From an uncultured Alphaproteobacteria bacterium (GTDB lineage: Bacteria > Pseudomonadota > Alphaproteobacteria > Rs-D84): a stretch of DNA of 64,000 nucleotides. The DNA lies in contig CAKQTG010000001.1 of NCBI GenBank assembly GCA_934276735.1, positions 418,203-482,202 of the forward strand, read 5' to 3'. Under the pieces are notes generated by a model, which was not told where the DNA came from, did no database searches, and saw nothing but the letters and a program-made list of their open reading frames with translations. Each line of letters begins with the position of its first letter. Position 1 is the first letter of the stretch. A program made the position numbers and the translations under genes. Positions 8,564-64,000 of this stretch are shown here, in pieces.

Positions 8564-9124
8564 ATGACAACAAAATGGGCGGATGGCAAAAATCGATGCG
8601 CGTGGGCAAATCCGAATAATCCAGAATACATAAAATATCACGACACTGAATGGGGGCGCACCGTGCATGATGATGCGCGGCTGTTTGAAATTCTGGTGCT
8701 GGAATCGTTTCAGGCGGGCCTGTCGTGGGAATGCATTTTGGCAAAGCGTGAAAACTTTCGCTGCGCATTTGATGGATTTGATGCACGCCGCATTGCCGAA
8801 TATACAGACAGCGATGTCAGCCGATTGATGGCGGATGCGGGGATTGTTCGCAATCGATTAAAGATTTGCGCGACAATAAAAAATGCGCGCGTATTTTTGG
8901 AAATCGTAAGCGAATTTGGTTCGTTTGACGCGTACATTTGGCGCGTGACGGGCGGGGCGGTAATCCGAGAGGTGGGCCGCACACATTCAGAAATTTCGGA
9001 CGCGATTTCCCGCGACCTGCGCCGGCGCGGTATGCGATTTGTTGGCACAACAATCATCTATGCATACTTGCAGGCCATCGGCGTTATCAACGGCCACAGC
9101 GCAGATTGCTGGTGCACAAAATAA
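8564..9124 (+). CDS. tag: DNA-3-methyladenine glycosylase I
   Basis: Tag-family sequence (KNRCAWANPNNPEYIKYHDTEWGRTVHDD…LEIVSEFGSFDAYIW…) with the Zn-binding C/H residues conserved. Confidence 0.85.
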   Translation: MTTKWADGKNRCAWANPNNPEYIKYHDTEWGRTVHDDARLFEILVLESFQAGLSWECILAKRENFRCAFDGFDARRIAEYTDSDVSRLMADAGIVRNRLKICATIKNARVFLEIVSEFGSFDAYIWRVTGGAVIREVGRTHSEISDAISRDLRRRGMRFVGTTIIYAYLQAIGVINGHSADCWCTK

Positions 9125-9193
9125 TCCCGCCCCGAATAGGGCTATATGTGCGATACGCGAGATTGAAGGGTTTAAAGCGAATCTTAATTTGCG

Positions 9194-10099
9194 TCAATTA
9201 CTCTGTTTTTTCTTTTGAATAACAATCATTATATGTGCACTTAATGATAACATATCTGGACACTCGCAAATTGAAAAATGCAAATCCAACCATTTTTTAT
9301 ATTGGGTTTTATTTTTTGCAATTTCATTAAATTCTTTATGTGCGTTTTGATTGGGCCATTCAAGAGCAACCTGATGTAATAATTTTGTGTTTTTTGCTGT
9401 TTTTAAAACTAAATCTTTCAATTCACTTGGCCAATAAAAATGTGCATACGAACAACCAACGAACCAATTATCATCACCGGTTTGTGCTAGTAAATTCGTT
9501 TCTTGCCAAAAATTTTTTTCGTTTTTATATCCATATGTTTTCAAATATCCTTTAAAATCTTTAACACATAAATTTAACACCGCCGGTCTTGCCATAACAG
9601 ATATAAATATCGGCGCCCCTGGTTTTGATACACGAACTAATTCTTTAATTGCTTTCTTTCTATCTTGTTCTGTTCGTAAATGTGATAACGGACCACCAAT
9701 ACATAATACCATATCAAAAGAATTATCTTTATATGGTAATTCTGTGATAGACCCTAAATCAACAGAATCAATAAATTTACCAACACGATATTGTTTGATT
9801 TTTCTTTTTGCTAATTCTAATTCTTTATCAGATATGTCCAGCAACGTCATATGATGACCTTGTTTTGCTAAATCTATTGTATACCGTCCAGGTCCGCCAC
9901 CTGCATCCAATATTTTCATACCCTTTTTCAAATACTTTTTATAAAAATATTCTGTTGTTTGAAATTCCAGCATATGTGCTGCATTTTTTGTTGTTCTGGT
10001 GAATTCTTTTTCTGCGGATTCATTATAAAAATCTTTTACGGAAACACCATTTTTGCGTTTCTTTGGTTTAACAAATAATGATTTAATGAACTGAAACAC
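9194..10099 (-). CDS. Class I SAM-dependent methyltransferase, encoded in a sharply AT-rich segment (probably acquired horizontally)
   Basis: SAM-binding motif ILDAGGGPGRYTIDLA. Start set to GTG at 10099, 8 nt after a strong aggaaggag RBS, with a tataat -10 box upstream. The track ORF start at 10180 is a TTG without an RBS. Local GC is far below the flanking genes. Confidence 0.65.
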   Translation of the reverse strand: MFQFIKSLFVKPKKRKNGVSVKDFYNESAEKEFTRTTKNAAHMLEFQTTEYFYKKYLKKGMKILDAGGGPGRYTIDLAKQGHHMTLLDISDKELELAKRKIKQYRVGKFIDSVDLGSITELPYKDNSFDMVLCIGGPLSHLRTEQDRKKAIKELVRVSKPGAPIFISVMARPAVLNLCVKDFKGYLKTYGYKNEKNFWQETNLLAQTGDDNWFVGCSYAHFYWPSELKDLVLKTAKNTKLLHQVALEWPNQNAHKEFNEIAKNKTQYKKWLDLHFSICECPDMLSLSAHIMIVIQKKKQSN

Positions 10100-10240
10100 G
10101 ATTTTTCTCCTTCCTCGTATTATACCACAGAAAGTTCGAAAATGATAATTTTCTGCAATTTTCCCAAACCGAACTTTCAAACTCGGTAAAAATATTACAA
10201 AACGAAAGAAATCTTGCCCCGATTGGCAAGTTTTGTTTTA

Positions 10241-10577
10241 GCAGCTGATTCCCTCGGCACGGTTGTGCCTGTGGGGCATTCGTATGACGTTCACGGCACT
10301 ACGTTTGTGAACATCAACTCATAGTCGAACCAACTGGTTCTGCCACCAGAAAACCCAACCAAAAATTAAACCGGCGCAAGGCCGGTTAAATTTTATATTT
10401 TATCGGTAGGCAGCTGATTCCCTCGGCACGGTTGTGCCTGTGGGGCATTCGTATGACGTTCACAGCACTGTTGTTTGTGAACGTCAACTCATTGTCGAAC
10501 CAAATGACTGGCGTCATGTGGTCGAACTGCGTTGACCACGACCAAAAATTAAACCGGCACAAGGCCGGTTAAATTTT
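10241..10577. repeat. Two tandem ~169-bp direct repeats (10241-10409 and 10410-10577) abutting the 3' end of tRNA-Gln. Each copy begins with a degenerate copy of the tRNA 3' region and ends with the same terminator-like hairpin (aaaccggcgcaaggccggttaaatttt).
   Basis: The copies are about 85-90% identical on direct reading. Both start gcagctgattccctcgg (compare the tRNA 3' region ggcagctggattcgaacc) and end ...ccaaaaattaaaccggc(g/a)caaggccggttaaatttt. Confidence 0.8.
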
Positions 10578-10651
10578 TGGTTGGGGCAGCTGGATTCGAA
10601 CCAACACTGACGGAGTCAGAGTCCGGAGTTCTACCGTTAAACTATGCCCCA
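10578..10651 (-). tRNA. tRNA-Gln (anticodon CTG)
   Basis: The reverse complement folds as a cloverleaf. It has U1-A72 like the E. coli tRNA-Gln alignment, anticodon loop CUCUGAC, T-arm GGTTCGAATCC, and an encoded CCA. Confidence 0.85.
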
Positions 10652-12540: not shown

Positions 12541-13779
12541 ATGAAAATCAAACCATTTGCCGGCGTTCGTCCCCCAAAAGATTTAGCGGCCCAGGTCGCA
12601 TCGCGTCCATATGACGTTCTGAATTCTGTGGAGGCCAAGCAAGAGGCCGGTGAAAAATCACTGTTGCATATTATCAAACCAGAAATTGATTTTGACCCGA
12701 TTGCCGATGAACATTCACAGGCTGTCTATGACAAAGCGGTTGAAAATTTCAAACTGTGGCAGGAACGTGGCTGGCTGGTCCAGGACCCAAAAGAAATGTA
12801 TTACATCTATGCCCAGACAATGGACGGTCGCACCCAGTATGGTTTGGTCGCGGCGGCAAATGTTGATGACTATATGTCGGGCAAAATTAAAAAGCACGAA
12901 TTGACGCGCAAAGACAAAGAAGATGACCGTATGATTCACGTTCGTATCCAAAACGCGAATATTGAACCGGTGTTTTTTGCGTATCCTGATGTTGATGAAA
13001 TGAACAAAATTGTTTCGGACTGGGTTGCGTCGCACGCCCCAGAATATGACTTTGTCGCAGACGATGGTTTTGGCCACACGTTCTGGGCAATTACAGATGA
13101 CGCGGTCAATGCACGCATAACCGAAATATTCAAAAATATCCCGGCGATGTATGTTGCCGATGGTCACCACAGGACCGCCGCCGCCGCCCGTGTTGGCGCA
13201 GAAAAACGCGCACAAAATCCGAATCACACAGGAAACGAAGAATACAACTATTTCTTGGCGGTGATATTCCCAGAATCACAACTGCACGTTATTGACTATA
13301 ACCGCGTGGTGCGTGATTTGAACGGGCTGACGCCGGACGAATTCTTGGCACGCCTGGGCGAATCGTTTGATGTTGTTGATATGGGCACAGAAATTTACAA
13401 GCCGGCAAAACTGCATAACTTTGGTATGTATCTGAACGGCCATTGGTACAGTCTGACGGCGAAAGCGGGCACGTATAACGACAACGACCCGATTGGTGTT
13501 CTGGACGTGACAGTGCTGTCAAATTTGGTGTTTGATAAAATCTTGAACCTGGGCGATTTGCGCACCAGCAAGCGTATTGATTTCGTTGGTGGAATTCGCG
13601 GATTGGCCGAATTGCAAAAGCGCGTTGATTCGGGCGAAATGGTTGCGGCGTTTGCGCTGTATCCTGTCACCATGCGCCAGATTATTGACATCGCCGATAC
13701 TGGCAACATTATGCCACCCAAGACAACGTGGTTTGAACCAAAGTTGCGCAGTGGTTTGGTAATACATAAACTGTCATAA
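12541..13779 (+). CDS. DUF1015 family protein
   Basis: N-terminus MKIKPFAGVRPPKDLAAQVASRPYDVL is characteristic of DUF1015. Strong RBS aaggagaaagcataATG. Confidence 0.7.
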   Translation: MKIKPFAGVRPPKDLAAQVASRPYDVLNSVEAKQEAGEKSLLHIIKPEIDFDPIADEHSQAVYDKAVENFKLWQERGWLVQDPKEMYYIYAQTMDGRTQYGLVAAANVDDYMSGKIKKHELTRKDKEDDRMIHVRIQNANIEPVFFAYPDVDEMNKIVSDWVASHAPEYDFVADDGFGHTFWAITDDAVNARITEIFKNIPAMYVADGHHRTAAAARVGAEKRAQNPNHTGNEEYNYFLAVIFPESQLHVIDYNRVVRDLNGLTPDEFLARLGESFDVVDMGTEIYKPAKLHNFGMYLNGHWYSLTAKAGTYNDNDPIGVLDVTVLSNLVFDKILNLGDLRTSKRIDFVGGIRGLAELQKRVDSGEMVAAFALYPVTMRQIIDIADTGNIMPPKTTWFEPKLRSGLVIHKLS

Positions 13780-13806
13780 AAAACGGGGCATCGCCCCGTT
13801 TTTTAT
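13780..13806 (+). terminator. Rho-independent terminator (aaaaacggggcatcgccccgtttttt)
   Basis: Hairpin plus T-run after the DUF1015 stop. Confidence 0.7.
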
Positions 13807-13880
13807 TAGTGATAAAGCGAGTAAGTGATAGAGTGATAAAGTTTTCAGCATAAAAAATTAAAAACTTGTCGTTACTGCCG
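13806..13880. repeat. Copy of the intergenic repeat module 'gtgataaag…agtgataaag…taaaaacttgtc' (other copies at 40170-40200 reverse, 54680-54730, 63570-63640)
   Basis: Shared string (a/g)agtaagtga(c/t)agagtgataaagt…aaaaacttgtc recurs at four loci in the window. Confidence 0.6.
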
Positions 13881-26858: not shown

Positions 26859-27194
26859 ATGAAAAAAATGTTTGTTGGTGCAATGGCGGTCGTGATGTCT
26901 GTGGCGGCGGCCAGTGCCGGTTTTGTTGATAATAATGAAACCATCGTCACCGTGGCCCAGGTCAAAGAAATGCGCGACGATGTTCCTGTAATTGTCACGG
27001 GGAATATTATCAAGAGTATGGGCGACGAAAAATATTTGTTCCGCGATGCCACCGATTCAATTGTTATTGAAATCGATGACGATGATTGGAACGGCCTGAC
27101 GGTGACACCGGACGATAACGTTAAACTGTATGGCGAGGTTGAATCCAAACTGTTCAAAACAGAAATCGAAGTAGACCGAATTGAAAAGTTATAA
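26859..27194 (+). CDS. BOF (YgiW/YdeI) family periplasmic OB-fold stress protein
   Basis: Signal peptide, then TIVTVAQVKEMRDDVPVIVTGNIIKSMGDEKYLFRDATDSIVIEIDDDDW…, typical of DUF388/BOF. RBS taaaggag. Confidence 0.7.
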   Translation: MKKMFVGAMAVVMSVAAASAGFVDNNETIVTVAQVKEMRDDVPVIVTGNIIKSMGDEKYLFRDATDSIVIEIDDDDWNGLTVTPDDNVKLYGEVESKLFKTEIEVDRIEKL

Positions 27195-27221
27195 AAAACG
27201 CGCCATCGGCGCGTTTTTTAC
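27195..27221 (+). terminator. Rho-independent terminator (aaaaacgcgccatcggcgcgtttttt)
   Basis: CGCGCC-NNNG-GCGCG hairpin plus T-run. The same hairpin type recurs at several gene ends. Confidence 0.7.
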
Positions 27222-27560
27222 AAGAGAGCAATGCGCAGAGAGCAGAGAGCAATGAAGCGCGCCAGTGGCGCGCTTGTTTTTATCGTCGCGGTCTAAGTTC
27301 CCCTTCGCTGGCGAAGGGGTGTCCACATAGTGGACGGGGTAGTGGTGGTCCCTGCGGGGCAATGGATACCGGCCTGCGCCGGTATGACAGTTGTGTGTGG
27401 TTGAGGACCATATTTTACGAACATAGTTTATGTCTTAGTTGCGGACCAAGTTCTCCTCCGGTAACCACCCGCGAAATTGATAAATTTCGTGGGTGGTTAC
27501 CAGGCCGGGGCCCATTGCCCCGCAGGGACATCGTTGCCCCAAAAAAACACAAAAAATCAT
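27222..27560. repeat. Mosaic intergenic repeat array (modules M1-M5). An inverted near-copy of the same ~250-bp composite is at 54920-55200.
   Basis: Contains agagagcagagagcaatgaagcgcgcc…gcttgtttttatcgtcgcgg, gttcccct…gcgaagggg, ggataccggcctgcgccggtatgac, ccacccgcgaaattgataaatttcgtgggtgg, all of which recur elsewhere in the window. Confidence 0.8.
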
Positions 27561-27619
27561 GCTGAATAAAAGGGGGTGAATCACGCGGAAATCAGGGCAA
27601 AAATACCCATAAAACCGTG

Positions 27620-27744
27620 CCGAAAATAAACCACCGTTTGGTTTTGACGTAAATTCGCGCTTGGTGATTGGTAAAAAATGTGCTAAAATTAAACCATTGT
27701 ATATAAGTGAGAAATGCCGAACCCAAACGGTGGTTTATTTTCGG
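27620..27744. promoter_or_regulatory. Perfect 22-bp inverted repeat (27620-27641 / 27723-27744) bracketing an 81-bp segment with promoter-like elements (TTGGTG …17 bp… TGcTAAAAT) upstream of the 27760 CDS
   Basis: ccgaaaataaaccaccgtttgg is an exact reverse complement of ccaaacggtggtttattttcgg. An extended -10 TGnTAAAAT lies between the arms. Confidence 0.5.
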
Positions 27745-27759
27745 CGCGGGGGATATATT

Positions 27760-29823
27760 ATGAAAAAAATCTGGTTTCTATCAATGTGTTGTGCGTGTAT
27801 GTTGGTCGGAATTTCTAATTCATATGGTGATTGTGGCGGAGATCAGTGCCAGTATAAGTTGTCTGATGGAACAACAGATTGCGCTAACATCGGCGAGGTC
27901 AGGCCCTTTAAGTGTAGACTCGGTAGCGGCGGCGTATATAGTCTAGATCATGTAAAAGTTGGAGACGGCGAGAATCATTGCGATGCAAAATGCAAGTCTG
28001 GAGTGTTTTCTAATTGGTGGTATTATACATTGCAGTCTGACGCATGCGAAGATGGGTGGAAGGTTGACTTCGATAAAAAAATCTGTGTCGCTGCTGATAA
28101 CCAAAAATGTAAATACACCGATGGGACGTTTGCTCAAACAGGTGTTGTTCGGAATAAGGGCAACTGTATTTTTGCTAGTCTAGAACATATAAAAAATGGT
28201 GGCAAGGGCCAGTGCAAGAACACGTGTAAGTCTGACGGTTGGTATTCGGAATTACACAATGACGCATGTGAAGATGGGTGGCTGGTTTCTGCTGATAAAA
28301 AAAGCTGTTGGCCGAAATGTAAAGAAAACCAGTGTGTACAGTCGGTTGATGGTAAAAAATCCTGTGTTGACAGCGGCAAGAGTGTTTACGAGAACTGCAA
28401 AACAGGGGATGGGGGCATAGATAGCCTGGAGCATGTAAAAGGTGGCAGTGGCTGGTGCACGGTCATGTGTGTATCAGGAAAGTGGGGACAACGAGAGTTG
28501 CGCCCCAATGCATGCGAATCTGGTTATGTGGTTGCCGCCAATAAAAAAAGCTGTGTTGCGGCCGAGAAAAAAAGCGATGTTGACGTGCCAGCGTCTGACC
28601 AGGGTGCGTCGAAACAGAAACCTGGTGCCTGTAAAGAAAACCAGTGTATATCTTCCCTTGATGGTAGCTGTATTGACAGCGGCACGAGTTTTAACGATAA
28701 CTGCAACACTGGGGAAGGAGGCATAGATAGCCTGGAACATGTAAAAGATGGTGGCTCGATTCAGTGCACGGTCACATGTGTATCAGGAAAGTGGGGACAA
28801 CGAGAGTTGCGCCCCGATGCATGCGAATCTGGTTATGTGGTTGCCGCCGATAAAAAAAGCTGTGTTGCCGACGATAAAAAGGGTGATGCTGGTGCTGATG
28901 CCTCGTGCGAGCTGGGGAAAGCATGTAAGCCATCCAGCCATGGCGCAAAGGGTGATGGAATATGTATCAAATATCAGGGTGACACGGTTAGTTGTGCGGC
29001 AACGGCGTGCGATACAGACAATGGATATCACCTGGTAAAGCAAAATGGTCAATCCATGGGATGGTGCCAAAAGTGCAAAAAGGACGAGCAGGTAAATGCC
29101 ACCGGCGATGGTTGCGTGTCGAAAAGTGCGAATGGCAATTGCCCCTATGAAGACGGGACGTCTGCCCAAACAGGTGACGTTGTGAACGATACGAACTGTG
29201 TTTCAGTTAATCTGGATCATGTAACAATGGGGGGTAAAGACCGGTGCAAGTCCACGTGTAAGTCTAATGGTTGGGATTATGAATTACACGTTTACGCATG
29301 TGAATCTGGTTATGTGGTTGCCGACGATAAAAAGAGCTGTGTAGAGAAAACCACCGTCGCAGCCGAGAAAGATATCAATCCGACAGAAACTTTGACGGAC
29401 AGCAAACAGGTCACCTGTGGTAAAATTATTGGTGCCCAGTGGATTGATGGCGAGTGCAGATGCACAACTGCCGGGTGGGTTATGAATGCGACTGGAACCC
29501 AGTGCGTCAAGGGCGAGGCACTGATAAAGGCCGAGCGGTTGTCGGCGTCCCGGACGAATATAAGCCGCCTGTATAAAAAACTGGACAGCATGTCAAATGA
29601 CTTTAAGGTGTCGGTATGGCGTGACAAACAGGGGAATTTTAACACATCGCGTCTGGCGTCTGATTCAATTGCGGCGGTGGTGTTGGGGACGACGGGGGCG
29701 TTGGTAACCAGCAGCGTTGTAAAAAAGAATCAGGTATCCAGTGGGTTTGAAGGTATTAGTTGCCAGATAGGCGGCCAGACCGTTGCCGGCTGGGGTGACG
29801 AGTTCAGTGTTGGAATGCAATAA
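27760..29823 (+). CDS. Secreted Cys-rich tandem-repeat protein (687 aa; about 60 Cys). It is built from ~100-aa repeats carrying C-x-S-G-[KW]… and C-E-[SD]-G-[WY]-[VL]-V-[AS]-A-[DN]-KK-S-C units, with a C-terminal hydrophobic anchor.
   Basis: Start moved to ATG 27760 (MKKIWFLSMCCACMLVGISNSYG). Repeats such as CVSGKWGQRELRPNACESGYVVAANKKSCVAA and CVSGKWGQRELRPDACESGYVVAADKKSCVAD differ by two residues. Confidence 0.8.
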   Translation: MKKIWFLSMCCACMLVGISNSYGDCGGDQCQYKLSDGTTDCANIGEVRPFKCRLGSGGVYSLDHVKVGDGENHCDAKCKSGVFSNWWYYTLQSDACEDGWKVDFDKKICVAADNQKCKYTDGTFAQTGVVRNKGNCIFASLEHIKNGGKGQCKNTCKSDGWYSELHNDACEDGWLVSADKKSCWPKCKENQCVQSVDGKKSCVDSGKSVYENCKTGDGGIDSLEHVKGGSGWCTVMCVSGKWGQRELRPNACESGYVVAANKKSCVAAEKKSDVDVPASDQGASKQKPGACKENQCISSLDGSCIDSGTSFNDNCNTGEGGIDSLEHVKDGGSIQCTVTCVSGKWGQRELRPDACESGYVVAADKKSCVADDKKGDAGADASCELGKACKPSSHGAKGDGICIKYQGDTVSCAATACDTDNGYHLVKQNGQSMGWCQKCKKDEQVNATGDGCVSKSANGNCPYEDGTSAQTGDVVNDTNCVSVNLDHVTMGGKDRCKSTCKSNGWDYELHVYACESGYVVADDKKSCVEKTTVAAEKDINPTETLTDSKQVTCGKIIGAQWIDGECRCTTAGWVMNATGTQCVKGEALIKAERLSASRTNISRLYKKLDSMSNDFKVSVWRDKQGNFNTSRLASDSIAAVVLGTTGALVTSSVVKKNQVSSGFEGISCQIGGQTVAGWGDEFSVGMQ
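28318..28929. repeat. Intragenic tandem DNA repeat, unit ~306 bp. Two near-identical copies (about 28318-28623 and 28624-28929) are flanked by more degenerate copies.
   Basis: For example 28461-28560 and 28767-28866 are ~97% identical; 28318-28475 matches 28625-28780. Confidence 0.8.
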
Positions 29824-37922: not shown

Positions 37923-38423
37923 ATGTTCGGCTTTGGCAAAAAGAAACAAGAAACAGTTAAAACAGACAACGCCACACTTAGCGAGAAAGAATTAAAACAG
38001 ATGGAAGAAAAAATGCCATCTGGGATGAAGGAAACTGCCCAACGTATGATGTCAGGTCAGTTTGACATGAACGACATGTTGGCCCAGTTAAAACAGATTA
38101 AAAAGATGAGCAATTTCAGTGGGCTGTTAAAAATGGTGCCGGGTATGTCGGGTGCGGTTGCCGCGATGAAGGAAAAAATTAAAGATGGCAGTGTTGAAGC
38201 CCAGATAAAGATACTGGAGGCGATGACCCCCGCCGAACGTGCGGAACCAGATAAAGTGTTTGCCAATGCCAAGGCTCGCATTGCCGAAACCGCGGGCTGC
38301 ACGGTGCGTGATGTTGAACATATTATCAAACAATATAACAAAATGCGCCAACAGATGGCGATGGTGCAACGCATGGGCGGAATGGAAGCCATTATGGAAC
38401 GCATGAAAAAACAAGGTAACTAA
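37923..38423 (+). CDS. Stand-alone SRP54/Ffh M-domain protein (166 aa). There is no NG GTPase domain.
   Basis: FDMNDMLAQLKQIKKMSNFSGLLKMVPGMSG … AMTPAERAEPDKVFANAKARIAETAGCTVRDVEHIIKQYNKMRQQMAMVQRMGG aligns with the E. coli Ffh M-domain (FDLNDFLEQLRQMKNMGGMASLMGKLPGMG … [48 protein letters not shown]). Strong RBS aaggagtgaaaaATG. It is 28 bp after the uvrA stop, so no upstream NG domain is possible. Confidence 0.7.
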   Translation: MFGFGKKKQETVKTDNATLSEKELKQMEEKMPSGMKETAQRMMSGQFDMNDMLAQLKQIKKMSNFSGLLKMVPGMSGAVAAMKEKIKDGSVEAQIKILEAMTPAERAEPDKVFANAKARIAETAGCTVRDVEHIIKQYNKMRQQMAMVQRMGGMEAIMERMKKQGN

Positions 38424-38427
38424 GGCA

Positions 38428-38685
38428 ATGAAAGTAAAACTGACAAAACTGTTTAATTGGGATATTAAAAACGTATATCCTGTCCGTGTCACGATGAAAG
38501 ATGGCGCGATTGATGCGTATACGGTCACTGTTGAATATGTATATCATGGACGGCGTGATATCGTGATACGACCGTCAGATGCGGGGTCTTATCGTCTGTA
38601 TCCTGATGCGCGGGCGGCCGCAGCGGCTGTGTATTCTGATTACTGGGAATTGATGCGTCGCCAGCGTACGTCCCGCCAACAGTAA
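38428..38685 (+). CDS. Small hypothetical protein (85 aa)
   Basis: ATG 5 bp after the Ffh-M stop with a weak aagg RBS. No known motif. Confidence 0.4.
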   Translation: MKVKLTKLFNWDIKNVYPVRVTMKDGAIDAYTVTVEYVYHGRRDIVIRPSDAGSYRLYPDARAAAAAVYSDYWELMRRQRTSRQQ

Positions 38686-38774
38686 CTAAATGAAAATACT
38701 GGATAAAAAATTCTGCACTCGCCATATGACTGTTGCTGGCGCAACACGCACAGGCTCTGCGGAATGACAATAAA

Positions 38775-39434
38775 ATGAAAATACTGAATAAAAAAATTGC
38801 AGCACATAAATCATCGGTCGCGTGGTTGCAACGCCAGGCAGCGGATCCATATGTTGCGCGTGCCCATCGTGATGGCTATCGTGCGCGGGCAGCGTATAAA
38901 TTGATTGAAATGGACGAAAAATTTCATTTCTTGAAAAATGGTCAGATTGTTGTTGACTTGGGGGCGGCACCGGGCTCGTGGACACAATACGTGGTGCGTC
39001 AGTATCCGCGTTCGCGTGTGTTTGCAATGGATTTACTGGAAATAGCACCGATTCCAGGTGTTGAATTTTATCAGGGCGATTTTACAACCGATGCTGCGCT
39101 GGGGTGGCTGGTGGACAAGTTGAATTTGCCAGATGATGCAGTGGGTCACGGCACGGTTGACGTTGTATTATCTGATATGGCACCGAACACTGTGGGGCAT
39201 AAAAAGACCGACCATTTGCGCCAGATGGTGTTGCTGGAATACGCATTTGATTTTGCGTTGCGTGCATTAAAACCGGGTGGGACATTTGTCGCCAAATCGT
39301 TCACTGGTGGCACAACCGGCGAATTGATAAAACAGATAAAGGCTAAATTTGATACGGTGCATCATATAAAACCGCCTGCCTCGCGCAAGGACAGCGTTGA
39401 AATGTTTGTCGTTGCGATGGGATATCGTGGATAA
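38775..39434 (+). CDS. rlmE: 23S rRNA (uridine2552-2'-O)-methyltransferase RlmE/FtsJ
   Basis: …DPYVARAHRDGYRARAAYKLIEMDEKFHFLKNGQIVVDLGAAPGSWTQYVV… shows the SAM-binding motif and catalytic K-D-K-E context. Start moved to ATG 38775 (MKILNKK). Confidence 0.85.
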   Translation: MKILNKKIAAHKSSVAWLQRQAADPYVARAHRDGYRARAAYKLIEMDEKFHFLKNGQIVVDLGAAPGSWTQYVVRQYPRSRVFAMDLLEIAPIPGVEFYQGDFTTDAALGWLVDKLNLPDDAVGHGTVDVVLSDMAPNTVGHKKTDHLRQMVLLEYAFDFALRALKPGGTFVAKSFTGGTTGELIKQIKAKFDTVHHIKPPASRKDSVEMFVVAMGYRG

Positions 39435-39436
39435 AA

Positions 39437-39462
39437 ATGCCCCGCCGGGGCATTTTTTATTA
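39437..39462 (+). terminator. Rho-independent terminator (aaaatgccccgccggggcatttttt)
   Basis: Hairpin plus T-run after rlmE. Confidence 0.7.
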
Positions 39463-40200
39463 GAGAGCATCCGTCTCCGCTGCGCTCCGTCGCGATAAAG
39501 AGAGCAGAGAGCAATGAAGCGCGCCGATGGCGGACACTCCTTATTTGTCATTCCCGCGTAGGCGGGAATAGGGACTATACAGTGCGAGCGAACGCGAGCC
39601 ATGTCCGAGCAATTGCGGATTTTATTATTGGTGACTAATCACTCAATTGTGACGTGCCAAGGGAACACAATGGATACCGGCCAGGCACCACCCACGAAAT
39701 TTATCAATTTCGCGGGGCCCGGACGGCCGGTATGACGGTGGTGTGTGGTTTGGGTGCTAATTTTTACGTATATTGTGCAACAATGAGCAAAAGTAATTTC
39801 TTAGTCCCTATTCCTGCCTTTGCCCACCCACAAAATCTTGCGATTTTGCGGGACCCGGAGCAGGAATGACAATAAGCACGCACTGTGTGTGACATTATTA
39901 CCTGGATCCTGGGGTCAAGCCCCAGGATGACAAGAGTAAAAATGTGCTAAGTTCCCCTCCGGTGGAGGGGTGGCACGCAGTGCCGGGGTGGTCTTGAGAG
40001 CCCGTAATGTTGAACAAGTGTAAAATACAAAAGACCACCTCCCCGCTGCGCGGGACTCCTCCATGGAACCACCCACAAAATTTGACAATTTCGCGGGGCC
40101 CGGAGGAGGAGAACTTAGTCCGCGACGGAAACGAAACAAAGTTCCCCTCTGGCCAGAGGGGAACTTTAATTTTATCACTCTATCACTTACTCACTAAAAA
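39463..40200. repeat. Mosaic intergenic repeat array (~740 bp) between rlmE and the dsbA-like gene, using modules M1-M6
   Basis: agagagcatccgtctccgctgcgctccgtcgcgataaagagagcagagagcaatgaagcgcgcc is identical to 45209-45275. Other module copies: cattcctgcgcaggcaggaatagggactatacagtgcgagcg, ggataccggccaggcacc, ccacccacgaaatttatcaatttcgcggggcccgg, ttgtgcaacaatgagcaaaagtaatttcttagtccctattcctgcc, cctggatcctggggtcaagccccaggatgacaagagtaaaaa, gttcccctccggtggagggg, gttcccctctggccagaggggaac. Confidence 0.85.
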
Positions 40201-40228
40201 AAACGGGGCGGGGCCCCGTTTTTTTATT
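40198..40228 (-). terminator. Terminator for the dsbA-like gene (aaaaaacggggcggggccccgttttttt)
   Basis: Hairpin flanked by A/T runs, immediately 3' of the minus-strand CDS. Confidence 0.65.
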
Positions 40229-41048
40229 TTTCCAATGCCCGGATAATCTGGTCATATGGAATTGCACCTGGGAATGCCTGTTCCTGGACAATCAAGAACG
40301 GTGTGCCGCTGATTTCAAACTGTTGTGCCAAATCACGAACGTTTGCCATTTCACGGGCAACAACCTCGCCATTCATGTCTTTCTTTAATTGAGTGGTGTC
40401 CAGACCTGCTTCTTCGGCCATTTTCAGCACGTTCTTTTCAACCTTTTCGGCGATTTTAGACTGGTCTTTCAAATCGTCCTGGGTATAGAATTCACGTGTC
40501 ATCATCATGTCAACCAATTTTGCGGCCTTTTCTGGGCTCTGCAATTTTGCAGCAATCGCGGCCTTGGCTGGGGCATCAGATAATGCGCCATGGATAGAGA
40601 AGTTTTTAACAACAACGCGGACGTCATTGCGGGCCTTTAATACACGGTCCAGTTCACCGTGAACACGGCGGCAGTATGGGCAGCTGAAGTCTGTCCAGAT
40701 GTAGATTGTCTTTTTCGCATCCTGGGCACCCAAAATCGGGGCATCAGCAATCATTGTGTCGGCGTGATCGCGAACAAATGTGCGAACGGCCTTGTTCTTT
40801 TCAGCGTTCAGCTGTTCCTGGGCACCGTTGGCCATCTGTTGGATAATCAGCGGATTGACCGATGTCAGGTAATATGGAACATACAAGCGGCAAACGCTGC
40901 CTGCGACCAAGATGATGGCAAAAACCTTTGTTGCTTTCTTTGCCAATTTCAAACCAGCACTGGATTCGTTACCGATATGGGCCAGCAACATGCCGCCAAA
41001 CATATACAGCGCAATACCCAGAACCAGAACCAAGATTGTCCAAGTCAT
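40224..41048 (-). CDS. DsbA-family thiol:disulfide interchange protein with N-terminal membrane anchor
   Basis: Thioredoxin-fold CxxC active site (FSCPYCRR). N-terminal TM helix. RBS aaggag. Confidence 0.75.
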   Translation of the reverse strand: MTWTILVLVLGIALYMFGGMLLAHIGNESSAGLKLAKKATKVFAIILVAGSVCRLYVPYYLTSVNPLIIQQMANGAQEQLNAEKNKAVRTFVRDHADTMIADAPILGAQDAKKTIYIWTDFSCPYCRRVHGELDRVLKARNDVRVVVKNFSIHGALSDAPAKAAIAAKLQSPEKAAKLVDMMMTREFYTQDDLKDQSKIAEKVEKNVLKMAEEAGLDTTQLKKDMNGEVVAREMANVRDLAQQFEISGTPFLIVQEQAFPGAIPYDQIIRALEK

Positions 41049-44605: not shown

Positions 44606-45181
44606 ATGAAAATTATTTTGACAGAAAAAATCGCACACTTGGGCAATATCGGTGATACAGTCGAAGTGAAAACAGGTTTCGCACGCAACTATTTGTTGCC
44701 AAATGGCAAGGCTATGCGCTGCACACGTGAAAACGTCGCGTTGTTCGAGGCGAAAAAGGCCGAACTGACTGCACGTCAAGAAGCCGCCAAGGCCGCAGCC
44801 CAGGCAAATGTTGACGCTGTCAAGAACGCAAAACTGCACATGATTCGCCAGGCGGGGGATACCGGTCAGTTGTATGGTTCGGTTTCGACACGTGATATCG
44901 CGCGTATGTTGAAAGAAATTGCGAACGTCAACGTTGAATCCGCCCAGGTCTTGTTGGGCAGCCCGATTAAATCCATCGGTGCGTTCGACACCAAGATTGC
45001 ATTGCACCCAGACGTTATTGTTCCGGTCAAGGTATACGTTGCCCAGACCCAGGACGAAATTGAGGCATTGATTGCGGGCAAGGTTCTGACATTTGGAACA
45101 AAAAAGGTTGAAGAAGAAGTTGCCGAAGAAAAACCGGCAGCGGAACCAAAAGCCGAAGAAAAAGCAGCAGACGCTGAATAA
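44606..45181 (+). CDS. rplI: 50S ribosomal protein L9 with an acidic/Lys-rich C-terminal tail
   Basis: MKIILTEKIAHLGNIGDTVEVKTGFARNYLLPNGKA…; canonical L9 N- and C-domains. Confidence 0.9.
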   Translation: MKIILTEKIAHLGNIGDTVEVKTGFARNYLLPNGKAMRCTRENVALFEAKKAELTARQEAAKAAAQANVDAVKNAKLHMIRQAGDTGQLYGSVSTRDIARMLKEIANVNVESAQVLLGSPIKSIGAFDTKIALHPDVIVPVKVYVAQTQDEIEALIAGKVLTFGTKKVEEEVAEEKPAAEPKAEEKAADAE

Positions 45182-45208
45182 AAAAATGCCCCACCGGGGC
45201 ATTTTTTT
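45182..45208 (+). terminator. Rho-independent terminator (aaaaaatgccccaccggggcattttttt)
   Basis: Hairpin plus T-run after rplI. Confidence 0.7.
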
Positions 45209-45345
45209 TAGAGAGCATCCGTCTCCGCTGCGCTCCGTCGCGATAAAGAGAGCAGAGAGCAATGAAGCGCGCCATCGGCGCGCTTGTTTTTATCGTCGCG
45301 GACTAAGTTCCCCTCTGGCCAGAGGGGTGGCGCAACGCGCCAATG
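45209..45345. repeat. Mosaic repeat array (M1 + palindrome gttcccctctggccagaggggtgg + terminator-like cgcgccaatggcgcg) between rplI and pgk
   Basis: The first 67 bp are identical to 39463-39529. The M1 module plus the CCCCTCTGGCCAGAGGGG palindrome are seen at four or more loci. Confidence 0.85.
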
Positions 45346-53039: not shown

Positions 53040-53800
53040 GCCAATCCCTCATCACTGAGGCAAAGGCTGGGAATAAACTAAAATCCCCTTCGCTGGAAAC
53101 CGCCCACGGAATTTATCAATTCCGCGGGGCCCGGACAAGCCCCAGAACGATGAGAGTAAAAAACGGACTGAAGTTCCCCTCCGGTGGAGGGGGACTTAGT
53201 CCGCAAATAAGACATAAACAATGTTCATAACATGGGACACCACCCACAAAACACTCGTCATACCGGCGAAGGCCGGTATCTATTGCCCCGCAGGGCCTGA
53301 TATTATCACTACCCCGTCCACTGCGTGGACACTCCGACCCGAGCCCCGCGGAATTGTTAAATTCCGTGGGTGGTTCCCGGAGGGGAACTTAGTCCGCGCC
53401 CCAGACATAAACGACGTTAGTAAAATAAAAACAAATACACCACGTGTCGCCTGCGGACTGCGTCCTTGCCGCATCCTGCGCTTCGCTTGGATTCATTCCT
53501 GCGCAGGCAGGAATAGGGTCTATGCAGTGCGAGCGTATGCGAGCCATATCAAAATAATCGCGGATTTTATCATTGGTGACTAATTGCCAAGTTGTGATAT
53601 ACCAATGGAACCCAATGTTGACCCTCCTGCACCGGTATGACGGTGTTGTGTGGTTAAGTTCTTATTTTTGCGTATATTGTGCAACAATGAGCATAAGTAA
53701 TTTCTTAGACCCCATTCCTGCCTTTGCCCACCCACAAAATCTTGCGATTTTGCGGGGCCCGAAGCAGGAATGACAAGTTTGAATGTATCGCTGGTGCGTG
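53040..53800. repeat. Mosaic intergenic repeat array (~760 bp) after clpX, using the same module set (M2-M5 and the cattcctgcgcaggcaggaatagg inverted-repeat module)
   Basis: Carries gttcccctccggtggagggggac, ccgcggaattgttaaattccgtgggtggttcccggaggggaacttagtccgcg, ttcattcctgcgcaggcaggaatagggtctatgcagtgcgagcg, ttgtgcaacaatgagcataagtaatttcttagaccccattcctgcctttgcccacccacaaaatcttgcgattttgcgggg, all matching other arrays. Confidence 0.85.
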
Positions 53801-53906: not shown

Positions 53907-54284
53907 ATGAAACAAATATCAACTCTGGGCTTGGTAGTGCTCGTGATATCGTGCCTGGGGGTGACGCCCGCAATGGCAGCAAACCTGGAGGGGTGCGAGC
54001 CATCCACAGAAAAACCGTGTTGTTGTCCAGATGAACCGGTAACGTACACTTGCCGTGGTTGTCCGCCCGGTTGGTACAAGGCAAGCGTGGTTGGAGTTGG
54101 GAAAGTGTGCGTGCCTGATTCTGGGACCACCAATAATATTCCAAGTGATAAAAAAGGTTATCTCTATGCCGAGGTCTGCACCGGCCAGCAATGCTTTACG
54201 GCCACTAGCAGTGAGGATGCTGCTGCCCGCGCTGATAAAGGGGAAGCATGTTTTTGCCCTGCTGCTTTAGGAGAAAAAAAATGA
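53907..54284 (+). CDS. Small secreted Cys-rich protein (125 aa; 12 Cys in the mature part; CRGCPPGWYKAS motif)
   Basis: Start moved to ATG 53907 (RBS aagggggaacgaaaaATG; MKQISTLGLVVLVISCLGVTPAMA signal peptide). Confidence 0.6.
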   Translation: MKQISTLGLVVLVISCLGVTPAMAANLEGCEPSTEKPCCCPDEPVTYTCRGCPPGWYKASVVGVGKVCVPDSGTTNNIPSDKKGYLYAEVCTGQQCFTATSSEDAAARADKGEACFCPAALGEKK

Positions 54285-54583
54285 AAAAATATTTTTTTGT
54301 ATGTGCTGTAATGGCACTGGTATCCGGGGCAGACGCCGCCGCCCCAACGTGTACAGTTACAGCGTCCGGATCTTATATGTCATGCAAGCCGGGATATTAT
54401 TATGATAGTTTTTTAATTGGAGACACAGGGAAAACGTGCAATCCGTGCCCGCAGTTTGATGATGCCATCAGCGCGGATAAAAATATTGACGGGGTAACGT
54501 CCTGCTATTTGCCCGCCGGAACAACAGGGTCCGATAGCACCGGCACATTTAAATATACATCTGATTGTCCTTATACCAATTAA
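54281..54583 (+). CDS. Small secreted Cys-rich protein (100 aa; 6 Cys; CKPGYYYDS motif), translationally coupled to the preceding gene (ATGA overlap)
   Basis: ATG 54281 overlaps the upstream TGA stop. RBS taggagaaaaaaaATG. Signal peptide MKKYFFVCAVMALVSGADA. Confidence 0.6.
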   Translation: MKKYFFVCAVMALVSGADAAAPTCTVTASGSYMSCKPGYYYDSFLIGDTGKTCNPCPQFDDAISADKNIDGVTSCYLPAGTTGSDSTGTFKYTSDCPYTN

Positions 54584-54589
54584 AACAGT

Positions 54590-55200
54590 TCGCCACTTTA
54601 TTGGCACCTATTTTCCCCCCGCCCCGAGAGAACGGGGGGAACAAATATAAGAGAGCAGGGGGCAATGAAAAGTGAGCAAGTGACAGAGTGATAAAGTGAT
54701 ATAGTTTTAGAATAGAGAACAATTCATGTGTCGCCTGCAGACCAAGGTCTTCGCCGCCAGGCCCCCGCAAAATCGCAAGATTTTGTGGGTGGACAAAGGC
54801 AGAAATAGGAACTAAGAAATTACTTTTGCTCATTGTTGCACGATGTTCGTAAAATATGGCCCCCAACCACACACCATCGTCACCCCGACCCGGGCCCCGC
54901 AAAATCGCAAGATTTTGTGGGTGGTTCCCGGAGGGGAACTTGGTCCGCAACTAAGACATAAACTATGTTCGTAAAATATGGCCCTCAACCACACACAACC
55001 GTCATACCGGCGCAGGCCGGTATCCATTGCCCCGCAGGGACCACCACTACCCCGTCCACTACGTGGACACCCCTTCGCCAGCGAAGGGGAACTTAGACCG
55101 CGACGATAAAAACAAGCGCGCCGATGGCGCGCTTCATTGCTCTCTGCTCTCTGCTCTCTGCGCATTGCTCTCTTGCATGACGAACCGCGGTTCTCGTCCG
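54590..55200. repeat. Mosaic intergenic repeat array (~610 bp). 54920-55200 is an inverted copy of the 27222-27470 composite.
   Basis: By reverse-complement comparison, ccgcaactaagacataaactatgttcgtaaaatatggccctcaaccacacacaaccgtcataccggcgcaggccggtatccattgccccgcagggaccaccactaccccgtccactacgtggacaccccttcgccagcgaaggggaacttagaccgcgacgataaaaacaagcgcgccgatggcgcgcttcattgctctctgctctctgcgcattgctctcttg is about 95% identical to 27222-27470. Confidence 0.85.
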
Positions 55201-55243
55201 ACAGGGCAAAAATAAAAACCACCAAAATGGTGGTTTATATTTT

Positions 55244-62249: not shown

Positions 62250-62291
62250 AAAAATTGATACAAATGTCACGCTAAAGGGGGTGAATGCATT

Positions 62292-62498
62292 ATGGTGAAG
62301 GTTCTGGTTCGCGACAATAACGTTGAACAGGCGTTGCGCGTTGCAAAACGTAAATCTCAGAAAGAAGGTCTGTATCGCGAAATGAAAGAACGTCAGCGTT
62401 ATGAAAAACCAACAACAAAGCGCAAACGTTTGAAAGAAGAGGCTGTGCGTAACGAGAAAAAACGTCAGTCGAAACAAAGAATGGTCTTTGGATTCTAA
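62292..62498 (+). CDS. rpsU: 30S ribosomal protein S21
   Basis: [46 protein letters not shown]…; canonical S21. RBS aagggggtg. Confidence 0.9.
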
Positions 62499-62530
62499 AA
62501 AAACGCCCCACCCGGGGCGGTTTTTTATTA
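62499..62530 (+). terminator. Rho-independent terminator (aaaaaacgccccacccggggcggtttttt)
   Basis: Hairpin plus T-run after rpsU. Confidence 0.7.
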
Positions 62531-62990
62531 GAGCGCAATGCGCAGAGAGCGATTAAAGTTCCCCTCTGGCCAGAGGGGTGGCACGTAGTGCCGGGGTGTC
62601 GGTTTCTCAGGGAGCAGAGTGTAGAGAGCAGAGTGCAATGAAAATGTCCGCCGATGGCGGACGACTCCAATGACCTGGATCCTGGGGTCAAGCCCCAGGA
62701 TGACGAGAGTAAAAAACGCGCTAAGTTCCCCTCCGGTGGAGGGGTGTCCGCTAGGACGGGGTGGTCTTGAGAGTGCGTAATGTTGGTATATGTATAAAAA
62801 GACCACCTCCCCGCTACGCGGTACTCCTCCATGGAACCACCCACAAAATCTGACGATTTTGCGGGGCCCGGAGGAGGAGAACTTGCCCCGCGCCGGGAAC
62901 GAAATAAGGTTCCCCTCTGGCCAGAGGGGTGGCGCAACGCGCCGGGGTGTCGGCATTGCTCTCTGCTCTCTGCGCGTTGCACTCTAATAA
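62531..62990. repeat. Mosaic intergenic repeat array (~460 bp) between rpsU and the DUF805 gene (modules M1, M2 three times, M3, M5)
   Basis: gttcccctctggccagaggggtggc (twice), cctggatcctggggtcaagccccaggatgacgagagtaaaaaacgcgctaagttcccctccggtggaggggtg, ccacccacaaaatctgacgattttgcggggcccggaggaggagaacttg. All have copies at 39900-40160. Confidence 0.85.
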
Positions 62991-63018
62991 AAAAGTGCGC
63001 CATTGGCGCACTTTTTAT
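62991..63018. terminator. Bidirectional terminator (aaaaagtgcgccattggcgcactttttatt)
   Basis: GCGCC-ATTG-GCGC hairpin 3' of the minus-strand DUF805 gene. Confidence 0.65.
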
Positions 63019-63479
63019 TTATTAAACTTGTGATACGGGTTGTCGTCAACCTTGGTCGGCAACAGCGAGAATACAAACATCACCACACTGGCGAAAATCG
63101 ACAAGAACGGTATCACGCACAGCGCATATATAAACCACCACCACGCCGACAGGCCCGCATCATGCAAACGCCGTGTGCGCATTGAAATCAGTGGGATTGC
63201 AATCGCGAGACTGTAAATCACGCCCACCAATATCATCAGGCCGAACATAACACTGACATCGCCTGAAAGTGCAAAGTCAATGGTCATACCCATTACCACC
63301 AATATGCCCCAAACCAGGTAAATCAGCACATTGACCAACGTTGTCCACCAGAATTCAGACCGTGACGATGTGCCCGCCCATTCGGTGAAACCACGCCGCC
63401 AGAACGCCGCATACGCCAAGAACATATTTGTGTATGTCGTGCTGGATTGAACTTTCTTTGACTTTTTAACGTTTGGCAT
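63015..63479 (-). CDS. DUF805 family inner-membrane protein
   Basis: Start moved to ATG 63479 (MPNVKKSKK; RBS aaggaaattct). DUF805 hallmarks (…RRGFTEWAGTSSRSEFWWTTLVN… RRLHDAGLSAWWW). Confidence 0.65.
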   Translation of the reverse strand: MPNVKKSKKVQSSTTYTNMFLAYAAFWRRGFTEWAGTSSRSEFWWTTLVNVLIYLVWGILVVMGMTIDFALSGDVSVMFGLMILVGVIYSLAIAIPLISMRTRRLHDAGLSAWWWFIYALCVIPFLSIFASVVMFVFSLLPTKVDDNPYHKFNK

Positions 63480-63534: not shown

Positions 63535-64000
63535 CCAGAATTTATTTCTCAGAGAGCAGAGCGCAATGACAAGTGAGTAAGTGACAGAGTGATAAAGTGA
63601 TTTAGTTTTAGAATAGAAAACTTAAAAACTTGTCATTCCTGCGCAGGCAGGAATAGGGACTATACAGTGCGAGCGGACGCGAGCCATACACACGCAATCG
63701 CGGATTTATTATTGGGGACCATGTTTTACGAACATTGTGCAACAATGGGCGGGAGTAATTTCTTAGACCCTATTCCTGCCTGCGCAGGAATGACAAGGGC
63801 GGTGTATTTGTGTTTATTTTATGACCATAGTTTATGTCTTGGCCGCGAGCTAAATTCCCCTCTGGGGAGCCGGGGTGGTGCGCAGCACCGGGGTGTCGGA
63901 TTCTCAGAGAGCAGAGCGCAATGAAAATGTCCGCCGATGGCGCGCTTGTTTTTTACCGTTGCGGTGTGAAAATCCCCTTCGCTGGCGAAGGGGTGTCCAC
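63535..64000. repeat. Mosaic intergenic repeat array running to the window end (M6, inverted-repeat module cattcctgcgcaggcaggaatagg…, ttgtgcaacaatgggcgggagtaatttcttagaccctattcctgcc, M1, M2-variant ccccttcgctggcgaagggg)
   Basis: Near-identical copies of these modules are at 39545-39830, 53490-53760, 54680-54730 and 27222-27330. Confidence 0.85.

Follow-up and report, generated by a model that had tools for sequence, protein, structure and literature searches.

The closest described counterparts of the repeats analysed here are the hairpins of Neisseria known as the Neisseria Transformation Sequence (NTS) and dRS3. The NTS, a 28-mer, is targeted by SsnA, a single-domain GIY-YIG nuclease of 94 aa (Chenal et al. 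2025, PMC11893778), which binds the hairpin only as single-stranded DNA (ssDNA), cuts a few bases upstream of it and does not bind RNA (PMC11893778). The C immediately 3' of the palindrome is the position most critical for binding, the loop sequence is non-essential, and loop extensions are tolerated (PMC11893778). Homologues of SsnA across bacteria are flanked by hairpins designated "Ssn-related motifs" (SRM) (PMC11893778). The stretch analysed here, referred to as the window, comprises 64,000 nt of contig CAKQTG010000001.1 (GenBank assembly GCA_934276735.1, positions 418,203 to 482,202 of the forward strand) from an uncultured alphaproteobacterium of the GTDB lineage Rs-D84, and contains arrays of short intergenic repeats, the main one at 39431-40232. 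These arrays are probably a Ssn-associated repeat system, similar to the neisserial intergenic mosaic elements (NIMEs), in a new lineage and with an undescribed element, M3, that nests in hairpin loops. What is new here is the lineage, the coexistence of several nuclease-hairpin pairs, an invertible cassette and M3 itself; no published account of repeats in these gut alphaproteobacteria was found in the literature.

Repeat tracts were delimited by a self and cross BLAST census of the window and related loci (designated by L numbers), in which long orthologous alignments were ignored. All eight repeat-rich intergenic tracts listed in a first-pass annotation of the window were recovered, at 13773-13878, 27189-27631, 39431-40232, 45177-45341, 53075-53780, 54650-55243, 62494-63020 and 63550-64000, with a total length of 4,018 bp (6.3% of the window). 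All were intergenic, with no module inside a real coding gene of the window, and each array began directly after a hairpin at a gene 3' end. The modules M1 to M6 and the long inverted-repeat module named in that annotation were each present in multiple copies and in both orientations, in keeping with its description of a nested palindromic family resembling miniature inverted-repeat transposable elements (MITEs) or repetitive extragenic palindromes (REPs). Their abundance greatly exceeds chance, as the motif counts given below show. A 250-nt composite of M1, an M2-like module and an SRM2 element (27228-27477, +; family I1) did reappear inverted, at 54912-55161, with 95% complementarity. A block described as 67 bp long and identical between two tracts was indeed identical (66/66), but it was 66 bp long with coordinates displaced by 2-4 nt (39460-39525 and 45208-45273). 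Open reading frames (ORFs) crossing the tracts, suspected from the outset of being spurious, overlapped the repeats and matched no protein family; one of them (62290-63003, -) was antisense to a putative rpsU gene for ribosomal protein S21, read by eye at approximately 62293-62490.

A scan for GTCA followed by a hairpin gave M4, M5 and the long inverted-repeat module one architecture, consisting of (C/T)GTCA, a stem of 8-9 bp, a tetraloop and the return stem, by which they are assigned to a single hairpin class. All six numbered modules were found, but they were not equivalent units: M4 and M5 join the long inverted-repeat module in this class, M6 is a cassette end, and M3 is a loop insert. 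The published degenerate SRM pattern, HGTCWYN(0-2)YYVSBRHN(0-5)WNVSBRGN(0-2)RNCYNB, matched the window five times (at 27362, 39902, 53256, 55000 and 62675, corresponding to three copies of M4 and two of M5), against 0.11 +/- 0.31 matches expected from 100 dinucleotide shuffles, an enrichment of approximately 45-fold. Three types were distinguished: SRM1, with ATTCCYGC, which is NTS/dRS3-like; SRM2, with ATACCGGC or ACCCCGAC followed by CATTGCCCCGCAGGGAC; and SRM3, with ATCCTGGGG. A fourth type (GTCATTGCGAGC...GCAATC) was present in related loci. Features shared with the Neisseria NTS/dRS3 and SsnA system (PMC11893778) included the GTC triplet found upstream of all SRM1, SRM2 and SRM3 copies, which as GTC(A) forms an orientation-giving 5' flank, and the hairpin at 39546-39573 (TGTCATTCCCGCGTAGGCGGGAATAGGG), which was identical to the NTS (CGTCATTCCCGCGMAVGCGGGAATCYRG) at 24 of 28 positions and contained, at 39550, the only exact dRS3 (ATTCCCN8GGGAAT) of the window. 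Together with three ATTCCTN8AGGAAT variants, this dRS3 brackets units of 100-240 bp. Predicted folding energies of the SRM hairpins ranged from -8.4 to -9.9 kcal/mol (z = -4 to -5.3), and a C directly 3' of the palindrome was present in SRM2 (..GGTAT-C) and SRM3 (..GGAT-C). The 12 SRMs of the window were distributed over both strands (5 on +, 7 on -), with no strand bias relative to GC skew. Across approximately 543 kb of window and related loci, 57 empty SRM1, 46 SRM2, 12 SRM3, 56 M6, 54 M1 and 33 M2 copies were counted.

The main array, delimited by the repeat census and the copy profile, separates the 3' ends of two convergent genes, one rlmE-like (38733-39434, +) and one DsbA-like (40224-41048, -). 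It starts directly after a terminator-like hairpin of the rlmE-like gene (39433-39458, +; family D15) with a AGAGAGCA-type M1 block (39460-39525, +; family D15), the one repeated at 45208-45273, which is followed by the SRM1 hairpin carrying the exact dRS3 (39546-39573, +). An expanded MITE-like element (39545-39873) has this hairpin as its left end and, as its right end, an SRM1 hairpin with M3 (39820-39858) in its loop (39810-39870, -). Between them lies an SRM2 hairpin (cGTCATACCGGCC...GGCCGGTATcc; 39674-39736, -), also with M3 in its loop (39684-39722, +; family D2) and with a predicted ssDNA fold of -21.3 kcal/mol (z = -5.2). Next is an SRM3 hairpin (tGTCATCCTGGGGcttgaCCCCAGGATcc; 39906-39931, -), the M5 of the first-pass annotation, which fits the published SRM pattern. 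An M2-bounded composite (39949-40168; family D7), 91% identical to 62797-62929 over 133 nt, contains a CCTCC/GGAGG hairpin with its loop occupied by M3 (40065-40103) and terminates in a 28-bp M2 palindrome (40137-40168) that is terminator-like on both strands. The array closes with an M6 fragment (40167-40195, -), the outer part of a nuclease-cassette end, and with a terminator-like hairpin common to the 3' end of the DsbA-like gene (40197-40225, +). A sigma-70-like site composed of TTGTCA from SRM1 and CAAAAT from M3 (39872-39843, 9/12 match) was too weak to build on.

Judged by sequence comparison, the window holds only gene-less, MITE-like derivatives of cassettes, solo cassette ends and accessory modules, and the corresponding cassettes with genes were identified in relatives. 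A motif scan of all reading frames of the window and loci yielded four small GIY-YIG proteins, each 105-107 aa in length and single-domain, and each matched by Pfam PF01541 over almost its full length (E = 9e-15 to 9e-14). They belong to two paralogous types, designated Ssn1 and Ssn2, which are 42% identical, and each putative nuclease has its own hairpin type: Ssn1 (L042 and L020, and L067 from a metagenome look-up; also L069-L078) is encoded between inverted SRM1 hairpins, and the gene for Ssn2 (L066 and L027) is flanked by SRM2-type hairpins. In sister genomes, the cassettes encoding these proteins measured 0.5-0.65 kb and had hairpins as inverted ends, a layout like that of NTS-ssnA-NTS (PMC11893778), with hairpins on both sides of genes for single-domain GIY-YIG proteins of about 100 aa. 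The ssn1 cassette spans approximately 470 bp between its SRM1 ends and approximately 640 bp with the inverted M6 arms located outside SRM1, so that M6 represents the outer arm of the cassette end; the inverted arms are 93-110 nt long, and the whole unit lies between two terminators. The predicted catalytic residues Y9/Y20/E67 of Ssn1 are spaced exactly as Y6/Y17/E64, the residues mutated in SsnA. A search for homologues returned 483 proteins, and all of the 120 listed were about 100 aa long with PF01541 as their only domain. Relative to the same neighbouring genes, the ssn1 cassette was oriented one way at 4 of 10 sampled places and the other way at 6, and nucleotide alignment confirmed the inversion. 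Genes bracketed by inverted pairs of M1, M2 or M6 were limited to GIY-YIG genes and spurious ORFs. A sheep-rumen metagenome-assembled genome (MAG) has, upstream of ssn2, about six tandem half-hairpin repeats of ggcggtatgacgaagaagaag (L027, 3620-3760); these correspond to right halves of SRM2 with a GAC flank.

On these sequence features, the arrays are closest, functionally and architecturally, to Neisseria NTS/dRS3, NIMEs and SsnA, and not to the palindromic elements of Rickettsia (RPEs) or the Correia elements, of which the first-pass annotation had been reminded; the nearest relatives of the modules are the NTS/dRS3 hairpins, NIMEs and SRMs tied to small GIY-YIG nucleases. Like the Neisseria repeats, they are intergenic, clustered, adjacent to genes of secreted or surface type and present in an animal-associated host. 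They differ from the NTS/SsnA system in that the host is a gut alphaproteobacterium with a reduced genome, a group not covered in the text of that study (PMC11893778), in that at least 3-4 hairpin types and two putative nuclease paralogues coexist, and in that SRM1 has A for C, M3 is nested in loops and the window has no nuclease gene. As in NIMEs (PMC1797815, PMC3898611), in which dRS3-type hairpins bracket units of 50-150 bp in variable order and orientation, the repeats are linked to strain-variable genes and recombination. In contrast to NIMEs, the repeat units have other sequences, the host is another one, there is no DNA uptake sequence (DUS), and nesting is deeper (an element within a loop within an element), so that the arrays are not a member of the Neisseria family. 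Despite the dRS3-like hairpin, an origin of the window from a Neisseriaceae genome was rejected: no DUS was found for the 8 dialects tested, and the Pasteurellaceae uptake signal sequences gave 2 + 1 matches, which is at chance level.

M3 is a 38-39 nt hairpin with the structure (4 variable nt)-CCACCCAC-RRAAT...ATTYY-GCGGGGCCCGG, of which the window has 10 copies; in total, 84 unique copies were collected. Of these, 60 were located between the matched halves of a known hairpin (SRM1, 21; SRM3, 16; SRM2, 13; M2, 8; CCTCC, 2), one was found in the loop of a terminator (L059), and approximately 12 joined halves of two different hairpin classes, the product expected from recombination within M3. 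All 50 copies between matched SRM halves had the same orientation relative to the GTCA strand, and the position of M3 in the tetraloops is exactly central. Two clean comparisons of filled and empty sites were available: the ssn1 cassettes of L067 and L042 are approximately 95% identical, with a 38-nt M3 at CT^GC in the right SRM1 tetraloop as their only large difference, and an SRM2 hairpin of L057 has 39 nt inserted at the same CT^GC site. A target duplication was found in neither of them. On the GTCA strand, 99.9% of cells in the 11-bp stem were paired, 62 of 65 sequences retained a G.T wobble, and covariation between A-T (AU) and G-C was seen at three pairs, in 30, 18 and 22 sequences. The M3-filled hairpin had a predicted fold of -21.3 kcal/mol on the GTCA strand versus -17.4 on the other strand, and of -8.6 when empty. 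M3 resembles the insertion sequences (ISs) IS1397, ISKpn1, IS621 and ISPpu9 (PMC1525189) in that it sits specifically within a palindromic repeat; those REP-targeting ISs, however, are 1-1.5 kb long and encode a transposase, whereas M3 is 38-39 nt long and non-coding, makes no target duplication and has no known enzyme.

The same inner-stem variants of M3 were found across all host-hairpin classes, and the 4 nt preceding CCACCC were class-specific (TTGC, GGTA/GGCA, GACA or GGAA); they may be part of M3 or may arise at insertion. This is the distribution expected if M3 entered each hairpin class once or a few times and was afterwards copied along with its host hairpin and recombined internally; it needs no dedicated enzyme, yet is compatible with one. 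A bolder account, which we hold to be doubtful, is that M3 is a new minimal form of mobile DNA that homes to the tetraloop centres of Ssn motifs, terminators and other palindromes, by a Ssn-dependent ssDNA route or through an unrecognised enzyme, and that the arrays and invertible cassettes constitute an active, self-propagating diversification system in a gut symbiont of about 1 Mb and not passive relics. In that account, the hairpin-within-hairpin structures filled by M3 would stay substrates of the nuclease. No M3 match was found in IMG/VR viral contigs, leaving a phage origin unsupported. In a distant rumen MAG (L032, 3974-4041), two M3 copies placed head to tail between mreB and cysS sit outside any Ssn-type hairpin, so that M3 can exist independently of SRMs. 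An inverted M3 pair in L038 was rejected as an autonomous element; it encloses only rplU-rpmA.

The family was not confined to the window, as the first-pass annotation had anticipated in proposing a dispersed one. In the species-representative genome collection, the degenerate M3 pattern was present in 62 stretches from approximately 15 MAGs, all of them uncultured gut or rumen Alphaproteobacteria (UMGS1304, UMGS860, UBA6376, UBA3760, several Hadza MAGs, sheep and goat rumen MAGs, "Candidatus Enterousia sp." and a bin titled Bacteroides fragilis). In the last of these (L035, L052 and L061; CAVGNU01 contigs), M3 lies in SRM1 hairpins typical of the alphaproteobacteria, and the bin is probably mislabelled or chimeric. 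Genomes of relatives were approximately 0.9-1.2 Mb in single contigs, and the order containing Enterousia has been described as uniformly genome-reduced (PMC12306168).

Genes of the window are 90-96% identical to those of UMGS1304 and the Hadza MAG CAKQSE, and comparison of these strains, which had been suggested as a check, revealed different strings of modules in orthologous arrays. Collinearity with close relatives breaks at 27218, 39469|40115, 45217, 45345 and 62550|62938, all at arrays. In UBA6376, which is more distant, the 26.8-kb side is connected to 55.17 kb, and 62.53 kb to 41.85 kb. A paralogous Gly-rich two-gene cassette occupies three array sites of CAKQSE (L046 2109-4136; L036 1778-3629; L030 1-1891), two of which are orthologous to the arrays at 39.4-40.2 kb and 45.2 kb of the window, where the cassette is missing. 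The encoded proteins are approximately 330 aa long with GGGGG runs and no Pfam match on record, and the copies share 75-77% protein identity. The arrays mark sites at which strains differ by rearrangement, inversion and gene gain or loss.

A mechanism may be proposed by analogy with SsnA of N. meningitidis. In single-stranded DNA, each nuclease would bind the GTCA strand of its own hairpin and nick a few bases upstream. Nicks, together with many short inverted and direct repeats, would lead to homologous or gene-conversion repair between paralogous arrays, and this repair would shuffle modules, invert segments between inverted copies, and let gene cassettes enter or leave at arrays. M3 would most likely spread in the same manner: repair of a broken hairpin would transfer a copy of M3 from a filled paralogue to one that lacks it, with rare illegitimate events seeding each new hairpin class with M3.

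Several points weigh against a Ssn-associated system of this kind. Neither an ssn gene nor a remnant of one was found by tblastn in the 64-kb window, so that the nuclease evidence comes from relatives only. No link of ssn1 to the assembly of the window was obtained, ClpX and the small proteins being found only on scaffold_5 of ENA assembly ERZ28614899, with which the window is identical in sequence, and on short contigs, and S18 being too conserved to be specific. Ssn1 and Ssn2 are candidate members of the Ssn clade (CDD cd10448), and neither NCBIfam nor PDB returned anything specific. That these proteins act as nucleases, that they nick DNA in vivo and that recombination follows is what we infer from SsnA by analogy. 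In SRM1, the palindrome is followed by A (..GGAAT-A) and not by the C most critical for SsnA binding. M1, M2 and M3 are not SRMs, and the nuclease-hairpin pair alone therefore does not explain them; nor does the proposed mechanism account for how M3 first reached each class of hairpin. Finally, the related loci were gathered by the M3 pattern, which biases co-occurrence statistics toward M3-rich regions.

The alternative that survives best, although improbable as the main explanation, is that the modules are chiefly cis-acting RNA or transcription elements (terminators, 3'-untranslated-region stabilisers or insulators) and that their repetition reflects selection for post-gene hairpins and not mobility. 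Every array begins right after a gene 3' end, a common leader of about 100 nt precedes variable genes beside arrays, and the M3 stem shows covariation, with a G.U-compatible wobble retained on one strand. M1 and M2 consist of G+C-rich stems followed by T-runs, as expected from the earlier suggestion that some modules act as terminators, and 24 intrinsic-terminator-like sites were found versus 9.5 expected in 39-46 kb, by pattern match only (examples are M1 at 45265-45285, M2 at 40137-40168 on both strands, and the array-bounding hairpins). This explanation leaves the GIY-YIG cassette structure, loop nesting, inversion polymorphism and fast strain turnover unaccounted for; the orientation of SRMs and M3 is mixed relative to neighbouring genes (7 of the 12 window SRMs are on the - strand), and SsnA does not bind RNA (PMC11893778). 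A further suggestion, that some modules encode small RNAs, received no support from Rfam, which reported only four tRNAs at the gathering threshold and nothing meaningful at E<=1, where the main tract gave only weak sub-threshold matches to terminator-like parts of unrelated families. Cis-acting and nuclease-linked roles are compatible and not mutually exclusive.

Quite improbable is an origin as classical MITEs, that is, as IS deletion derivatives moved in trans by a DDE transposase, like Correia elements or RPEs. Many elements of 150-280 bp do have 34-nt terminal inverted repeats, and 11 MITE-like pairs with SRM1 ends were found at spacings of 102-236 bp between ends. An example is a compact 169-bp element (63629-63797; family I22) with 34-nt inverted ends and an SRM1 in each (63632-63654, +; 63772-63794, -). 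The proposed check for target-site duplications and terminal inverted repeats accordingly had a divided outcome: inverted ends were present, as in this element, but target-site duplications were absent from every clean comparison of empty and filled sites. No transposase ORF lies between any inverted pair, and the full-length partner carries a gene for a 106-aa GIY-YIG protein. The halves of the 169-bp element aligned to the two ends of the ssn1 cassette (L042, L067 and L020), which identifies it, from the alignment, as a gene-less derivative of that cassette. The arrays share with Correia and Rickettsia palindromic elements their small size, inverted ends and abundance in small host-associated genomes, but differ from them in the lack of TA or other target duplication, in staying out of coding genes in the window (a departure from RPEs in particular), in their Ssn-type hairpin ends and in a full-length partner that encodes a GIY-YIG protein.

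Very unlikely is the explanation that the repeats are REP/BIME elements made and spread by a REP-associated tyrosine transposase (RAYT, of the Y1 HUH kind), as in E. coli and Pseudomonas. The resemblance to REP-BIME with RAYT (PMC2817692, PMC3333891), the more distant of the related systems, extends to imperfect palindromes with conserved asymmetry, clustered in mosaics after gene 3' ends and probably handled as single-stranded hairpins, to the absence of target duplication and to an association with strain-specific regions, as for REP (PMC1525189); the description of SsnA itself draws the parallel (PMC11893778). However, the conserved 5' motif is GTCA and not GTAG, the hairpin-bracketed genes encode GIY-YIG and not Y1 HUH enzymes, and tblastn with E. 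coli RayT against approximately 550 kb of window and loci, which are partial genomes, detected no RAYT (best E = 0.11).

Local duplication or an assembly artefact of collapsed repeats has a negligible probability, because, even though short-read contigs break in arrays (L003 at 40038 and 45237, L004 at 40144) and L001, L079 and L089 are the same assembly as the window and not independent, the modules are present in the 62 stretches from other MAGs, the independent assembly L003 reads into arrays at 100% identity, the genes at 53907-54583, which arrays flank, are also present in L090, a product of that same independent run, and orthologous arrays in other strains are of similar complexity; the concern about artefacts raised in the first-pass annotation is thereby answered.

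The Ssn-associated reading is of wider relevance in that Ssn nucleases were described only in 2025, their biological role outside Neisseria being unknown. This lineage, which turns up very commonly in gut metagenomes of humans and ruminants and has genomes of about 0.9-1.2 Mb, is a compact natural system for studying that role. In it, two putative nuclease paralogues and several matched hairpin types occur along with gene-less derivatives, and among strains 90-96% identical the consequences can be seen as inverted cassettes, module shuffling and the gain or loss of gene cassettes at the arrays; the effect of Ssn-hairpin pairs on the genome is directly testable here with existing metagenomes and a few oligonucleotide assays. 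The arrays also break short-read assemblies of these MAGs, and they adjoin the strain-specific secreted-protein genes most likely to be relevant to host interaction. Were M3 actively mobile, it would represent mobile DNA of a new, minimal form and a natural case of the loop-extension tolerance that the authors of the Ssn study exploited in vitro.

Further elements of the window are built from the same modules. A second expanded MITE-like copy (53490-53776; D1, 81%; D11, 93%) has a left SRM1 variant at 53492-53514 and a right SRM1 with M3 at 53714-53774. A MITE-like derivative of ssn2 type (27348-27535) has ends composed of SRM2 and CATTGCCCCGCAGGGAC (27348-27388, -; 27513-27529, +) and includes a perfectly palindromic M3 variant (27461-27502). 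An inverted repeat of 128 nt (left arm 53633-53760, +; right arm 54760-54887; family I2), made of array modules with 82% complementarity, brackets two strain-specific genes for small Cys-rich secreted proteins (53907-54583) in a hairpin-gene-hairpin layout. Empty SRM2 hairpins, the M4 of the first-pass annotation, fit the SRM pattern at 53256-53283 (+), with more copies at 27362-27389 (-) and 55000-55027 (+), and a second SRM3 hairpin that also fits it lies at 62675-62705 (-). Additional M3 copies are located at 62833-62871 (+), 53096-53134 (+), 53724-53762 (+), 53339-53377 (-), 54758-54796 (-) and 54890-54928 (-). A short array of terminator, M1 and M2 (45177-45345) lies between rplI and pgk. 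A solo terminator with an M6 end-fragment (13773-13878, +) stops at ...AAAAACTTGTC, the junction where SRM1 normally follows, and solo cassette ends are found at 13806-13878 and 40167-40195. The terminator hairpins at gene ends form a family of their own, AAAAAACGCGCC-NNNN-GGCGCGTTTTTT, the members of which are 70-100% alike (at 13775, 27190, 29819, 40195, 41824, 45327, 55108, 62987 and 63921); the hairpin within M1 belongs to this type too, suggesting M1 as either a derivative of terminators or a source of them.

A conserved leader or promoter-like sequence of approximately 100 nt (…aatcacgcggaaatc.ggg.aaaaatacccataaaacc.tgccgaaaa…) is situated between the arrays and strain-variable secreted-protein genes (window 27535-27631; L046 1913-2010; L036 3750-3842; L005 6058-6161; L010 3570-3661; L051 1-65). 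It precedes a gene for a 720-aa Cys-rich protein in the window and the Gly-rich cassette genes in CAKQSE, and looks like a shared expression signal for variable genes. The 720-aa gene (27661-29823), directly downstream of the array, has internal repeats of 78-189 nt (D4, D5 and D8) and a weak cEGF-like match; its product is probably a repetitive Cys-rich secreted protein. The small Cys-rich genes at 53907-54284 and 54281-54583 overlap, encode signal-peptide-like N-termini, match no protein family, and were found only in this strain (the same assembly and one Logan contig).

Away from the arrays, a 41-nt inverted pair of CCCAACCAAAAATTAAACCGGCGCAAGGCCGGTTAAATTTT (10354-10394 and 10545-10585, 150 nt apart) abuts the 3' end of a tRNA gene (10581-10651, -); its hairpin family is not that of the arrays, and it may represent a further small element or the scar of an integration site. 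The G+C content falls to 35% at 9001-10000 (window mean approximately 49%) over an ORF at 9194-10180 (-), and this segment may be foreign DNA beside the tRNA gene. A small indel was also observed at 38420-38687, where the region of an 85-aa ORF is replaced by 46 bp in CAKQSE (L046 636-682).

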